A DNA stretch of 64,000 bases from contig NIVC01000794.1 in the NCBI GenBank assembly GCA_002269645.1, positions 98,106 to 162,105 of the forward strand. The letters are read 5' to 3'. Under the pieces are notes generated by a model. It saw nothing but the letters and a program-made list of their open reading frames with translations. It was not told the origin of the DNA and ran no database searches. Source of the stretch: Macrostomum lignano. Taxonomy: Eukaryota. The translations under genes and the position numbers were made by a program. This document shows, in pieces, positions 59,481-64,000 of this stretch (positions are counted from its first letter, which is position 1; each line of letters opens with the position of its first letter).

Positions 59481-60023
59481 GGAGAGTAGAAGGCATGAGG
59501 GGGCTTCTGGGACAAAATTTTTCACCTCCTCCATAATCCACCTAAATCCATCCATATTATCCCTGACAGAATCAGAAAAAAAAGGGGGGTCGCACCTGCT
59601 AACAAAACGTCTTCCATAATCCACCTAAATCCTTCCATATTATCCCTGACAAAAAAAGAAAAAAAGGGGGGTCGCACCCGCTCACAAAACGTCCTCCATA
59701 ATCCCATTAAATCTATCTATATTATCCCCGACAGAATCTTGAAAAAGGGGAGGGGTTGCACTTGATCCGAAAACTTTAATCCCATTAAATCCATCCATAT
59801 TATGACTGACAGAATATGGGAATATGGGTCCACTGACACCTGTTATGCTCACTGACACTGACATAATCCACTGACATCCACCCATAGCATCTTCGAAACA
59901 ATCAGAAAATAATCTGCATTCTTCTCCCCACATTCAATCCGCAACGTGAAACCAGATCCCTAAGACTTTAAATCATCAGCGCAGGGTCCTTACCCTTTGA
60001 AAAAAATTAAATTTTCAATAAAA

Positions 60024-60263
60024 ATGTTTCCAGTTGTCTCTCCAGGTTCTTATTACAAAACGCACGAGCCTAATTACAAGAGTAAGTACCGATGCAAACT
60101 TGAATGCAGCGAGTACATGAGAAAATATTGGCCCGATGTTGATATCAATGTCCCTAATATTAATCAAGCTCTCCAAAGACACTGGTTTCATAAGTATGGA
60201 GTAACCTATGTAAAAGATTACGACAGCTACTATAACTTTGCAGAAATCATTAGGCAATTGTGA
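60024..60263 (+). CDS. Small hypothetical protein, tail-to-tail with the penton-like gene
   Basis: AAAAATG start; Tyr-rich, 79 aa; stop lies 4 bp from the penton stop. Confidence 0.45.
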   Translation: MFPVVSPGSYYKTHEPNYKSKYRCKLECSEYMRKYWPDVDINVPNINQALQRHWFHKYGVTYVKDYDSYYNFAEIIRQL

Positions 60264-60267
60264 TTTC

Positions 60268-61131
60268 TCACATTCTCTCAATGATTAACGTCAATACAAA
60301 CTCTTCCCCATTAAAATCAACGCCCATCCCATCTTCAGTCTCAAACTGAAGCACAATCTCGTGAATCTCCTTATTACTCAATACAACTCTTTTCACTGGA
60401 TTTGGTTTCTCTACCACCATCTGTCCTCCAGCTACAGAGTTGGAGATGTTGTACAAAATATTAGTTCGCTTTCCCTTAAATACCCAATCAAGACTGAGAT
60501 TAGTTCTGATTAGAATATTCAAACCCTTTACAATGTCTGCTATATTGGGTGCTAAGAACAAACCGCGTACACTTTCCCGGGCCATGCTAACGGCCCCCGA
60601 TGCTTGAGTGACAGTCCGCGCTGTGGATTCTGCCTTATAAACTTTCTTCACGAATCCCAATTCCCTATACCAAGTGTCATCTTTAAACTCAACCTCCGCA
60701 TCTTTGTGAACTTGCATGACCACTCTCATTACAGTGAGATCATAGGTTAGTTTAACAGGGAACAGTTTCTTCTCTGGCTTACTCATATCAGGTGTCTCAA
60801 AATGGCCTCTTTTAGTAAAGACGTTTTCTAGAAAGTAATTGTAGGTATCCACACTTTGCGTGCTCACAGGGAATACCACAGGTTCTGCTGCTGCACCTTT
60901 CCATTTGTAATAAAACTTATTATTTGCTGCCGTCACATTGGGAACGTTTGACCAACCAGTGAAGTCGTTAAGATAGACATGGTAATTAGCACCTGGATCC
61001 AGGCTAATCGCCTGCTCTAATTTTTGAACAAATATCCCGTTTGAGTCATTAATCCGCCCAGTTATTGTAATAGGAATGCTCTCCTTGGAGTGCGAAATAA
61101 TATTGTTTAGTCTTTCGGCTATAGCTTCCAT
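60268..61131 (-). CDS. Minor capsid (penton-like, single jelly-roll) protein of Maverick type
   Basis: ISLDPGANYHVYLNDF, NNKFYY, and C-terminal ILIRTNL...ILYNISNSVAGGQMVVEKP...IHEIVLQFETEDGMGVDFNGEEFVLTLII resemble animal Polinton penton patterns as I recall them. Confidence 0.75.
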   Translation of the reverse strand: MEAIAERLNNIISHSKESIPITITGRINDSNGIFVQKLEQAISLDPGANYHVYLNDFTGWSNVPNVTAANNKFYYKWKGAAAEPVVFPVSTQSVDTYNYFLENVFTKRGHFETPDMSKPEKKLFPVKLTYDLTVMRVVMQVHKDAEVEFKDDTWYRELGFVKKVYKAESTARTVTQASGAVSMARESVRGLFLAPNIADIVKGLNILIRTNLSLDWVFKGKRTNILYNISNSVAGGQMVVEKPNPVKRVVLSNKEIHEIVLQFETEDGMGVDFNGEEFVLTLIIERM

Positions 61132-61156
61132 TTTTTTCACCCACAAAAAAAAATAT

Positions 61157-62442
61157 TTAAACTTTACTGGATGAATTGTTGATCATGTTAAGCTTCACCT
61201 TCCTCTCAAATGCATAGATAATGTACAGGTCCACGGGTGTTGCGACAGTCCTCTCAATGTTAGTCACGATATTCACAGGGCTGTTATCAGTAGGCATTTG
61301 TCTGGCAGACACATCAGCGCCAAACATTGGATATAGAGTTCCATATTGAAGAGCAGTGATAGCAATTCCATTGTTCTCTTTCACAGCCAAGTCGACCAAC
61401 TCGCTGTAAAATTTGCTAATCTTGTTCTGACTGAAATCTCCATTTTGTGGCAGTGCAGGGTAAAGATTATCACTGATTTCATGCTGAATGGACCGCACGT
61501 CTCCATGCATGTAGCGTATAATGCTATTTGGGTTTCTCATGTTAATAATAATATACCGTGGATTGCTGCATGATCCCTCTTTAATGCAGATGTTTGTTCT
61601 AGTTTCGTTTCGCTCATCTCGACACATGTAGGCCGTGTATGCAACATCAATGTCCTTCTCTATTGCCTTAAGATAATCCGCTTTTAGTGCAGTCTTTGGC
61701 TCAATGACTTCCAAATACAGCTCGATTCCGGTTAGCTTCACCTCCATCCTTGTGTGATCCGCCCCAGTCCACAACACTCTACTGCGATCATCTCTAGTCA
61801 TCCTAAAGGTGTAGCTAAAGTTACTAGTCAGTCGATTAAATGTATTACAGAATCCACTCATGAATCTCAGTGGTACAAATACATCAACAGACCGATACAG
61901 CGGGTTTTAGCAGCATCATCTGCACCTTGCAATGCATAGTTGTATCTCTTCTTCCTCTTTTTATAGCCACTGTCATTGGTGTCTCCTTCTTTTTCATCTG
62001 CGATAAAACCCGCACCACTTCCCAACTGAATAAAATCAGGATTCTCGATCAAACAATGAGCGTCATAGACAATTCCAAAGTTGGCGATTCGCTCCAACTC
62101 AGTGCTCCCATTCGATACACTAAACTCCTTGAACATGTACGCCCAAAAGTTACTGATCAGAGCCACATCCGCATCATGCTTGTCAACGTTAGCACGAGCC
62201 GCATCCGCACCACCCTTTGTCTTGAATTGAAATGTCATATGGAAGCCGCTCTTAAGACTGTGCACACTAACCAAAGACGAACATCCATTGTATGTAAATG
62301 TCAGTGTTTGGCCAGGACCAAGATTAGTTTCATTCTGATTTTCCTGACTGGGAACTCTTACCTGAGTCGCTTTGATTGTGCTATCATCACTCAAAATAGG
62401 CTTGTTAATTTTGTAGAAAACTGGTGTCAGTGGGTCGTTCAT
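61157..62442 (-). CDS. Major capsid (hexon-like double jelly-roll) protein, split by a one-base frameshift at 61905-61908
   Basis: Adding one base joins the two ORFs into 428 aa through AKNPLYRSVDVFVPLRFMSGFC. Motifs FKEF...ELERIANFG, PRYIII, LYP, PMFGADVS and LYIIYAFERKV follow the Polinton MCP pattern as I recall it. Confidence 0.78.
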
Positions 62443-62472
62443 TTTTTAACTAAAAATAAAATAAAATAAGAA

Positions 62473-63687
62473 ATGAAGCGAAAAAGTACACAGCAGATAT
62501 CTGAATTGGAGAAGCTAGCACAAGCAGAGAAACGAGTTACCGGGCTAATAAATAAGGAGCAACAATCCTACAATGAGTTTGTCCAAGCAGCCACAGAGTT
62601 TCATAAGCCCGGGTATGGAGAAGCTAAGAAAAATATTGATCAGGTCAAAGAAACTATCGACGACATACAGGAAACCCAAGTGCAAAAGGTTTTGGGCAAA
62701 ATTCCAGAAGCACCACAGATACAGCCGCAACCACAACAACCACAACCACAACAGCAACTAAAAGTGACAGATAACATTTTTGGACCAGTAGAGCGTGTCG
62801 AACATGATGGGAAATATGTATTTGGAATAAGTATGTGGAGAAAAAACATTTATAATGAACCAGTGGAATATTATATCGACATAAATAAGGAAAATATTTC
62901 TGTTGTCAAAGGTTTAGAAGCTATGAAAATTCCTTTCACAGACACCTTACTGACTTTTATGACCAAGAACCAAGAGAAAATCTCGGAGAAGCAGCTAAAG
63001 AACTACAGAGATCTAGTGACTTTTGCTCTTGCTAGAGATATAGAAATACTAAAGGCCCCAGAAGTCCTGAGACTTATGTATGATAACGGTGTCAACCTGA
63101 CTAAATTCAAAAAGTACAAGCACTTTAAACAATGGTTTGGTTTGCCAGATCAGGGGGAAGTCATTGATCAGATGAAATATCTAGAACAACAGCAACAACA
63201 ACAACAGCAACAACAACAACCACAACCACAGCAGCAACATTTCACAGAAGAACAAGTACTCAGTCAACTCGAGCAGTTAGACCCTTTGAAAGTAGCTGAA
63301 TATAAGAAACAAAACCCAACAGACTGGCAACGCTTAGAACAACACTCTCCAGATCGAATGAATAGAATCAATCAAAGAGTTTTCACACCTCAACAAAGAC
63401 AGGCACCACATGACAGTTCCATCTCTGAAAGTGAGCAGTCTTTTGCATCACCTCCCCAGCAGCTACAAGCCCAACCAACTCCACAACCCCAAGACCAACC
63501 GCCCTCAACTGGAAAAGGAATTTCTGAAATCTACAAGCGAGTAGCGGTTCTTCTAGGAGCGGCAAAGACCGGAATGAAAGATGAAAATAGAAAAGAATTT
63601 GTCAACATCCTCAATAAAATGCTTGAGAGAAAATACATCGATAAGAGGGCGAGAGAGCTTCTGCTTTCGCGGTTCAACAAAAAATAA
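62473..63687 (+). CDS. Maverick-associated protein, 404 aa, Gln-rich
   Basis: Intact ORF. The C-terminal KRVAVLLGAAKTG...EFVNILNKMLERKYI resembles the RLxLLxG..AGN...E...I...L...I motif recalled from Maverick ORFs. Confidence 0.7.
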   Translation: MKRKSTQQISELEKLAQAEKRVTGLINKEQQSYNEFVQAATEFHKPGYGEAKKNIDQVKETIDDIQETQVQKVLGKIPEAPQIQPQPQQPQPQQQLKVTDNIFGPVERVEHDGKYVFGISMWRKNIYNEPVEYYIDINKENISVVKGLEAMKIPFTDTLLTFMTKNQEKISEKQLKNYRDLVTFALARDIEILKAPEVLRLMYDNGVNLTKFKKYKHFKQWFGLPDQGEVIDQMKYLEQQQQQQQQQQQPQPQQQHFTEEQVLSQLEQLDPLKVAEYKKQNPTDWQRLEQHSPDRMNRINQRVFTPQQRQAPHDSSISESEQSFASPPQQLQAQPTPQPQDQPPSTGKGISEIYKRVAVLLGAAKTGMKDENRKEFVNILNKMLERKYIDKRARELLLSRFNKK

Positions 63688-63704
63688 ATATCTATTTAAA
63701 AAAG

Positions 63705-64000
63705 ATGCCAATTATTTTCGAAAAAGACATTGACAAATACTATGACAAAGAGGAACTTAATCTTATTAAACGCGGATCTGGACTTTTCCCTGCAGGCCAC
63801 TATCCAAGAAAAGAGCGCTCGGGAATGGCCTTGCCGATTTGATCGCTCAGGGGGCTAAGATTTTTAAGGTCATTGGAGAGAACAAAGAGAACATCAAGAA
63901 CGTTGCCGAAGCGGCTGGCAGTGTAGCCACAGCAGCCAAAAAGATAAAGGATACTGTAACACCTAAACAAGAGATTCAACCTCCACTGGCCCCGCTGGCC
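63705..64000 (+). CDS. Small basic virion-core-like protein, frameshifted near 63805, runs off the window
   Basis: MPIIFEKDIDKYYDKEELNLIKRGSGLF..., then in the -1 frame KKRALGNGLADLIAQGAKIFKVIGENKENIKNVAEAAGSVATAAKKIK. Confidence 0.55.

Follow-up and report, generated by a model that had tools for sequence, protein, structure and literature searches.

The capsid-gene end of a Maverick/Polinton copy in Macrostomum lignano, from a family that is probably still spreading

The 64,000 nucleotides of the Macrostomum lignano genome that we analyzed (the window; positions 98106-162105 of contig NIVC01000794.1, or C794, in assembly GCA_002269645.1) end in a cluster of virus-like capsid genes near a basic helix-loop-helix (bHLH) gene of the host. 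This raises the question of whether the cluster is a special single provirus or part of something that is still spreading, and if so, how it spreads. Our answer is that it is very likely the capsid-gene end of a mosaic Maverick/Polinton copy that inserted recently and belongs to a family of high copy number, and that this family likely multiplies outside the chromosomes and spreads by means of its capsids. A first reading of the letters alone (the sequence-only reading) identified the element correctly in kind, and as a single locus it is ordinary. It is at the level of the family that there are signs of ongoing, recombining, and probably capsid-dependent spread.

A Maverick/Polinton family at about 200 places in the assembly

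That the stretch belongs to a Maverick/Polinton is confirmed, with the alpha-adintovirus type as its probable kind, and it is the family as a whole that has what defines a Polinton. The full core gene set is present in sister copies, and the terminal inverted repeats (TIRs) are of the AG/AGT type, with inverted pairs in sister copies and AGTAG at the start of the window copy. Sister copies gave Pfam matches above the cut-off to Pox_A32 and Peptidase_C5 (an A32/FtsK ATPase, PF04665, and an adenain protease, PF00770), DNA_pol_B_2 (a family B protein-primed polymerase, pPolB; PF03175, E = 1.5e-6), rve (an integrase; PF00665, E = 7e-9), Phospholip_A2_4 (PLA2; PF08398, E = 6e-14), and Adeno_PX. The last of these is on a separate open reading frame (ORF) of 148 amino acids (aa) beside the integrase, and it was not reported on the one PLA2 copy that was scanned. 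The polymerase has no sequence match in PDB. Cys and His motifs that we take to be of the OTU type are visible at its N-terminus, with no profile or structure match. A vOTU domain is described in the accessible text of PMC11161782. The polymerase also has an endonuclease-VII-like stretch (L013:6007-8031; Pfam E = 4.8e-4, below the cut-off).

The family is at about 200 places in the genome assembly, so the window copy is not a special single provirus. This count, which the sequence-only reading had called for, comes from 346 exact occurrences of the 22-nucleotide terminus in the genome (a control gave 0). These imply at least about 170 elements, or about 220 if the share of exact termini is 11 in 14, and some of them are duplicate haplotypes; summed contig depth was not taken as copy number. 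Protein searches scored only the best candidates and hence overstate intactness. They gave penton matches of 92-100% identity (the best 136 of 590 candidates scored, 12 with a stop), matches to the major capsid protein (MCP) that were mostly without a stop (94 of the best 98 scored, from 663 candidates), and 118 scored matches to the integrase. Among 28 end pairs formed from the first 100 listed termini (two alternative pairings and the copy C827 were left out), the 6-base-pair (bp) target-site duplication (TSD) was exact in 20, had one mismatch in 3, and was absent in 5. The TSDs have no clear target preference, and we rejected the idea that the element prefers to insert into itself, as just 1 of 62 flanks matched its interior. 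Rfam gave no match to a group I intron in 13 loci (117 kb). A slot of variable content lies between PLA2 and the terminal repeat: across 27 stretches from integrase ends (for example L055, L077, L063, and L093), it is occupied by ORFs of 140-300 aa from several unrelated families, most of them without a Pfam match.

By polymerase type and PLA2, the family fits the alpha adintoviruses. As described in the accessible text of PMC8502044, these share with it a pfam03175 PolB, an rve integrase, an adenain protease, an FtsK/A32 ATPase, hexon-like and penton-like proteins, a PLA2-like gene, and inverted terminal repeats in host DNA. Theirs is PLA2X, with pX at the C-terminus of PLA2, whereas here the pX-like domain was found on an ORF of its own. 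The capsid lineage is divergent: the nearest outside MCPs are few and 78-41% identical, and among viral and metagenome contigs we found no relatives with DNA context. The words “Flatworm” and “Platyhelminthes” are absent from the main text of PMC8502044. Vertebrate Mavericks, according to the accessible part of PMC8097293, are 12.7-24.6 kb long with ends that start with AG, a 6-bp TSD, and TIRs of variable length. Our family resembles them in size, AG ends, TSD length, variable length of the TIRs, purifying selection on the capsid genes, and the presence of intact and degraded copies side by side. It differs from them in gene order (here the capsid genes are at one end and the integrase and PLA2 at the other), in copy number (their median is 8), and in the length of its duplicated ends (TIRs of up to 1,447 bp there, arms that reach 4.6-6.2 kb in four insertions here). 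A literature search found no paper on this family; supplements and Repbase were outside its scope and may list it. The accessible text of a preprint (10.1101/2025.04.19.649669) mentions Orthopolintovirales insertions in Rhabditophora.

Where does the window copy begin? The sequence-only reading placed a virion module at 59997..64000. The module stands, but the element starts about 500 bases further left, at 59485, directly after a 22-bp minisatellite, and the terminal repeat and a 79-aa ORF had been missed. Contigs from four sequencing runs split into unrelated flanks at 59482-59485, and the likeness of the left terminal repeat to the integrase-end termini of other copies extends to 59738-60055. 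One might suspect a chimeric join here, or viral DNA that came in as a contaminant, given that the contig ends inside the element (at 168007, which is 5.9 kb beyond the window and within the polymerase gene) and that the junction lies within a tandem repeat. We consider this highly improbable: the join is exactly at the terminus of the element, sister copies with TSDs sit in host DNA, and the junction is found at single-copy depth in an independent run from another study (X6), where a 57-nucleotide contig spans 59455-59511 without differences at a depth of 23.7, as compared to about 20 in the flank. Furthermore, two homologous loci (C3526 and C3228) have the same bHLH gene and flanks, their 22-bp array runs on into host DNA, and the element's terminus is absent from 30 and 20 kb of them (2 of 2 are empty). 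Because of the empty loci and the junction contig at flank-like depth, we regard it as very probable that the insertion is real and that it took place after the three loci had split. The earlier claim of a recent insertion thus holds up, and the capsid genes are one substitution away from those of other copies.

Capsid proteins and the selection on them

The sequence-only reading expected structure prediction to give a single jelly-roll for the 287-aa protein and a double jelly-roll for the repaired 428-aa protein. Both were predicted, the second in a model of low confidence with consistent top matches. The 287-aa protein, when folded with 121 aligned sequences, gives a model (predicted local distance difference test, or pLDDT, of 92.8) with the fold of a single jelly-roll penton. 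Its best solved matches are the mavirus penton (E = 3e-10), then the Sputnik capsid chain and adenovirus penton bases; against six capsid chains the Z scores are 11-13 and the root-mean-square deviations 2.8-14.8 Å, and the next match has a Z of 7.6. For the MCP we folded the 428-aa protein of an unbroken sister copy at another locus, with 13 sequences, and the model resembles double-jelly-roll capsids. All 21 rows listed by Foldseek are double-jelly-roll capsid entries (best E = 1e-11, with the MCPs of Sputnik and PBCV-1 at about 1e-11), and the top nine rows of a VIA search are capsid or scaffold chains (Z of 8.5-10.6). The Pfam match of a sister-copy MCP to DJR-like (E = 5.7e-5) is below the cut-off.

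Judging from the differences among copies, the capsid genes are under purifying selection. We counted nonsynonymous and synonymous variants (N/S) in unbroken, gap-free copies only, of which there were 19 distinct ones for the MCP, 21 for the penton, and 8 for the ATPase; for the integrase and the protease too few copies qualified. The overall ratios (pN/pS) were 0.12 for the MCP, 0.23 for the penton, and 0.10 for the ATPase. For variants that are found in at least two copies, N/S was 0.10, 0.19, and 0.08, respectively. These low values imply that the copies that left descendants kept their capsid proteins, which is not the same as showing that virions form today. Purifying selection is also seen in the 79-aa ORF (shared-variant N/S of 0.29) and in the first 75 codons of the 404-aa ORF. 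In fish Mavericks, purifying selection on the capsid genes was taken as evidence for virions, and the abstract of the same paper states that the particles have not been observed (PMC8097293, accessible part).

Alternatively, the family might now move only within cells, as a transposon, with the capsid genes as passengers and with any mosaic copies arising by gene conversion between integrated copies. Singleton variants are nearer to neutral than shared ones in the penton (N/S of 0.56) and in the MCP (0.31), with 0.11 in the ATPase, conversion would find templates at hand in the roughly 200 near-identical copies, and there is no expression or virion evidence, all of which would fit. (One run, RNA by our guess, covers the element but leaves out its flank; it is also deep on the terminal repeat, and a little carried-over DNA would give the same picture, so that it says nothing either way about expression.) On the other hand, the shared variants are strongly synonymous in both capsid genes, on a level with the ATPase, and in the nine elements (described below) that have mismatched ends and an exact TSD, conversion would have to reach the very terminus. 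We consider a purely intracellular transposon to be rather unlikely.

Exchange between copies and duplicated ends

When compared to 12 other copies, the window copy is, to judge by its sequence, a recombinant mosaic. Its penton and MCP genes are within 0.0-0.2% of those of C142 and C217. The 404-aa ORF, by contrast, is 15-29% away from theirs and, in the first two thirds, just 0-5% away from those of C633 and C2829b. The outer TIR differs by 3-15% from all 11 comparable copies.

The two ends of an element often do not match each other either. In 26 elements whose own ends were compared over 150 nucleotides (C66, C105, C217, C716, C744, and the duplicate C1652 were left out), there were 0-1 substitutions in 15 and 3-26 in the other 11. 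Of the latter 11, nine are flanked by an exact TSD. When the distances from each end to its nearest neighbor in another element are summed, 8 of the 11 have a total below the distance between their own left and right ends, and neutral ageing cannot give this. So the divergence between left and right TIRs is not an age clock in this Maverick family. We prefer exchange before integration as the explanation for both the mosaics and the mismatched ends. Recombination between elements and recent mobility are also reported in the accessible texts on nematode Polintons (10.1101/2023.08.22.554363) and on mosaic Polisuviricotina (10.64898/2026.10.13.758929), but those concern swaps of modules between distant lineages, while here the exchange is among near-identical copies in one genome.

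Four independent insertions (C276, C633, C1584, and C2140) have a capsid arm at both ends, an exact 6-bp TSD, and neither integrase nor PLA2. C1652 shares flanks with C276, and the two were counted as one insertion. Three of the four were chosen from protein lists and one was within the unbiased 28 end pairs. The arms are 1.75-6.2 kb long and 99.3-99.9% alike. They differ from each other by 4, 5, 1, and 1 substitutions (C276, C633, C1584, and C2140), as compared to 61, 197, and 18 substitutions from the nearest other copies of the first three; C2140 had no comparable copy. The flanks are distinct and the TSDs are direct repeats, which argues against artefacts from hairpin reads. Each of the two inner junctions that we searched for, from C633 and C1584, is unique in the genome. 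They hence do not show these forms spreading as units, and formation before insertion looks the same as formation after it. Linear DNA viruses such as adenoviruses and poxviruses produce copy-back or end-duplicated defective genomes, in which one end is copied onto the other and genes are lost. The forms here differ from those in being integrated with a 6-bp TSD, whenever it was that they formed. Among titles and the beginnings of abstracts, literature searches brought up no palindromic or end-mismatched Mavericks.

A few other rearranged copies deserve mention. C2140 (L085:4110-8530) has a tyrosine-recombinase (DIRS-like) retroelement between penton and MCP in both of its arms, so the duplication is later than the retroelement. 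At C716:368625-392104 the two flanks of the end pair mirror each other instead of repeating in the same direction, which may be an artefact. C105, C544, and C827 are short derivatives of 3.6-3.8 kb, with capsid genes between two termini, and the TSD of C544 is exact. Two candidates were rejected as palindromic: in C819b the integrase end carries a piece of penton with a likeness of just 73% to the element's own, which makes it no self-copy, and C70 is an ordinary copy with an insertion.

How might these forms arise? If the family behaves like known Polintons, an integrated copy would be released, the protein-primed polymerase would copy it from its ends, the ATPase would package the genome into a shell of penton and MCP that is matured by the protease, and the rve integrase would insert it again. 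We suppose, in addition, that several genomes may replicate in one nucleus and swap segments, which would give mosaic copies with mismatched ends, and that occasional fold-back copying could give copies without an integrase and with a capsid arm at both ends. A bolder and rather speculative version, which we would not bet on, is a Maverick virus that is replicating at present. Its genomes would enter germline nuclei together, recombine in almost all intervals between genes, swap the accessory slot, and shed copy-back-like defectives (two capsid arms and no integrase) that helpers integrate in trans. If this were true, then M. lignano would offer a direct way to search for the virions of animal Mavericks, which have never yet been seen.

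Several observations weigh against our view. We saw neither virions nor free linear DNA nor transcripts, as we worked from assembled run contigs only. An open frame of at least 1,250 aa was found in just 3 of 100 scored polymerase matches. The MCP model has a pLDDT of 57 and its Foldseek matches have low TM scores (0.3-0.4). The purifying selection was counted in unbroken copies only and may date from earlier in the history of this family, and mosaics and mismatched ends could also result from gene conversion among copies that are already integrated. For the window copy itself, the contig across the junction extends 30 and 27 letters to its two sides, which is below the bar of 31 letters for bridging, and the right end and its TSD are not assembled. 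Nevertheless, patchwork copies with conserved capsid genes suggest that spread by virus particles likely continues in this family. Animal Mavericks may or may not form virions, and to look for them one could well turn to a young family that has conserved capsid genes and about 200 copies in the assembly. On its own, the window copy adds little to this question. The patterns of the family (mosaics, mismatched ends, and palindromic defectives) bear on how Polintons replicate.

The window copy and its host neighborhood

The window segment is the capsid-gene end of one broken-looking copy. The genes that the sequence-only reading described are all present (Table 1): tandem penton-like and hexon-like genes on the - strand and a 404-aa and a core-like ORF on the + strand, with minimal spacers of 4-30 bases. 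The alleles of the 404-aa ORF differ by up to 30%, and Pfam, Atlas, and phage searches gave no usable match to it; its C-terminus may resemble Polinton PZ proteins. The small basic ORF, with its G-x-G sites, likely encodes a core protein that would be processed by the protease, and a Pfam search gave no match to it.

Table 1. Features of the window and the palindromic insertions (window positions unless a contig is named)
Feature	Position	Strand	Remarks
Host bHLH ORF (achaete-scute-like)	52433..53746	-	Pfam HLH E 1.5e-11; neighbor, outside the element
Host minisatellite	59170..59484		22-bp period, 14.3 units; element inserted into the array
Expected left TSD	59479-59484		Last 6 bases of the minisatellite; right partner not assembled
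Left TIR	59485..60010		AGTAG start; about 5 internal sub-repeats, spacing about 82 bp; inner border approximate
79-aa ORF	60024..60263	+	Frequent at both ends of other copies; no Pfam match
Penton gene (single jelly-roll), 287 aa	60268..61131	-	Predicted fold, structure matches
MCP gene (double jelly-roll)	61157..62442	-	428 aa in sister copies; here pieces of 191 + 234 aa, frame change near 61900
404-aa ORF	62473..63687	+	Unbroken; Gln-rich; conserved ends, hypervariable middle
Small basic ORF	63705..64000, continuing beyond the window	+	115-128 aa in sister copies; three G-x-G sites; broken near 63800
Palindromic insertion	C276:289398-300645		Exact 6-bp TSD
Palindromic insertion	C633:134497-147607		Exact 6-bp TSD
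Palindromic insertion	C1584:127375-135893		Exact 6-bp TSD
Palindromic insertion	C2140:107247-122715		Exact 6-bp TSD

Comparison to other copies bears out the two one-base shifts that had been noticed within the window. Near 61900, in the MCP gene, the window is unlike 14 of the 15 copies compared (C1335 alone has the window's state), and near 63800, in the small basic ORF, it is unlike 10 of 10. The genes that had been expected further right are found in part: the ATPase is split in two, the frame of the protease is truncated, and the polymerase is present as fragments. The integrase, right TIR, and right TSD lie outside the assembled sequence, and the integrase is seen in sister copies. So at least five genes are broken (MCP, small basic ORF, ATPase, protease, and polymerase), and the suggestion that this copy is possibly competent is not supported: as assembled, it could not finish the cycle alone. 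Nor does it have everything by which PMC8097293, in its accessible part, recognizes an intact Maverick (unbroken core ORFs, both TIRs, and a TSD), with the caveat that the breaks may be assembly errors.

Could the copy be whole in the animal, with frame breaks that are consensus errors in a repeat that cannot be polished? The ratio of one-base indels to substitutions is 13:10 between two assemblies of one insertion (C276 and C1652) and 1-2:1 when the window is set against four of the six copies nearest to it, as compared to 5:51 in host flanks. This excess of indels points to consensus errors in repeats. Yet at least five genes would have to be affected, C1335 has the same state at the MCP break, most of the one-base indels in the polymerase part are outside homopolymer runs, and the integrase end is unseen. 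A whole copy is possible, but we lean against it.

Does the insertion matter for its neighbor? We take the bHLH ORF to be of the achaete-scute type by its motif. The proximity that had been pointed out is real, as the element is 5.7 kb upstream of the start codon, which is what would favor an effect on regulation. Any significance of this proximity is not supported. Both homologous copies of the gene are without the element, one of them has an unrelated long terminal repeat (LTR) retroelement in the same minisatellite, and the TSDs point to no preferred target. With about 200 insertions and two empty homologues, chance is enough, and the closeness is probably due to it; a role in regulating the gene is very unlikely.

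The surroundings of the element are rich in tandem repeats. The bHLH ORF continues into a 21-bp coding tandem repeat (window 52433-53746), and the region upstream of it (54167-59484) contains minisatellites with periods of 21, 22, 23, and 49, whose unit numbers differ among the three homologous loci. In C3228, the minisatellite (L034 end to L035:3710) is interrupted by about 3.7 kb of the LTR-type retroelement, with reverse transcriptase, RNase H, and an integrase zinc finger.

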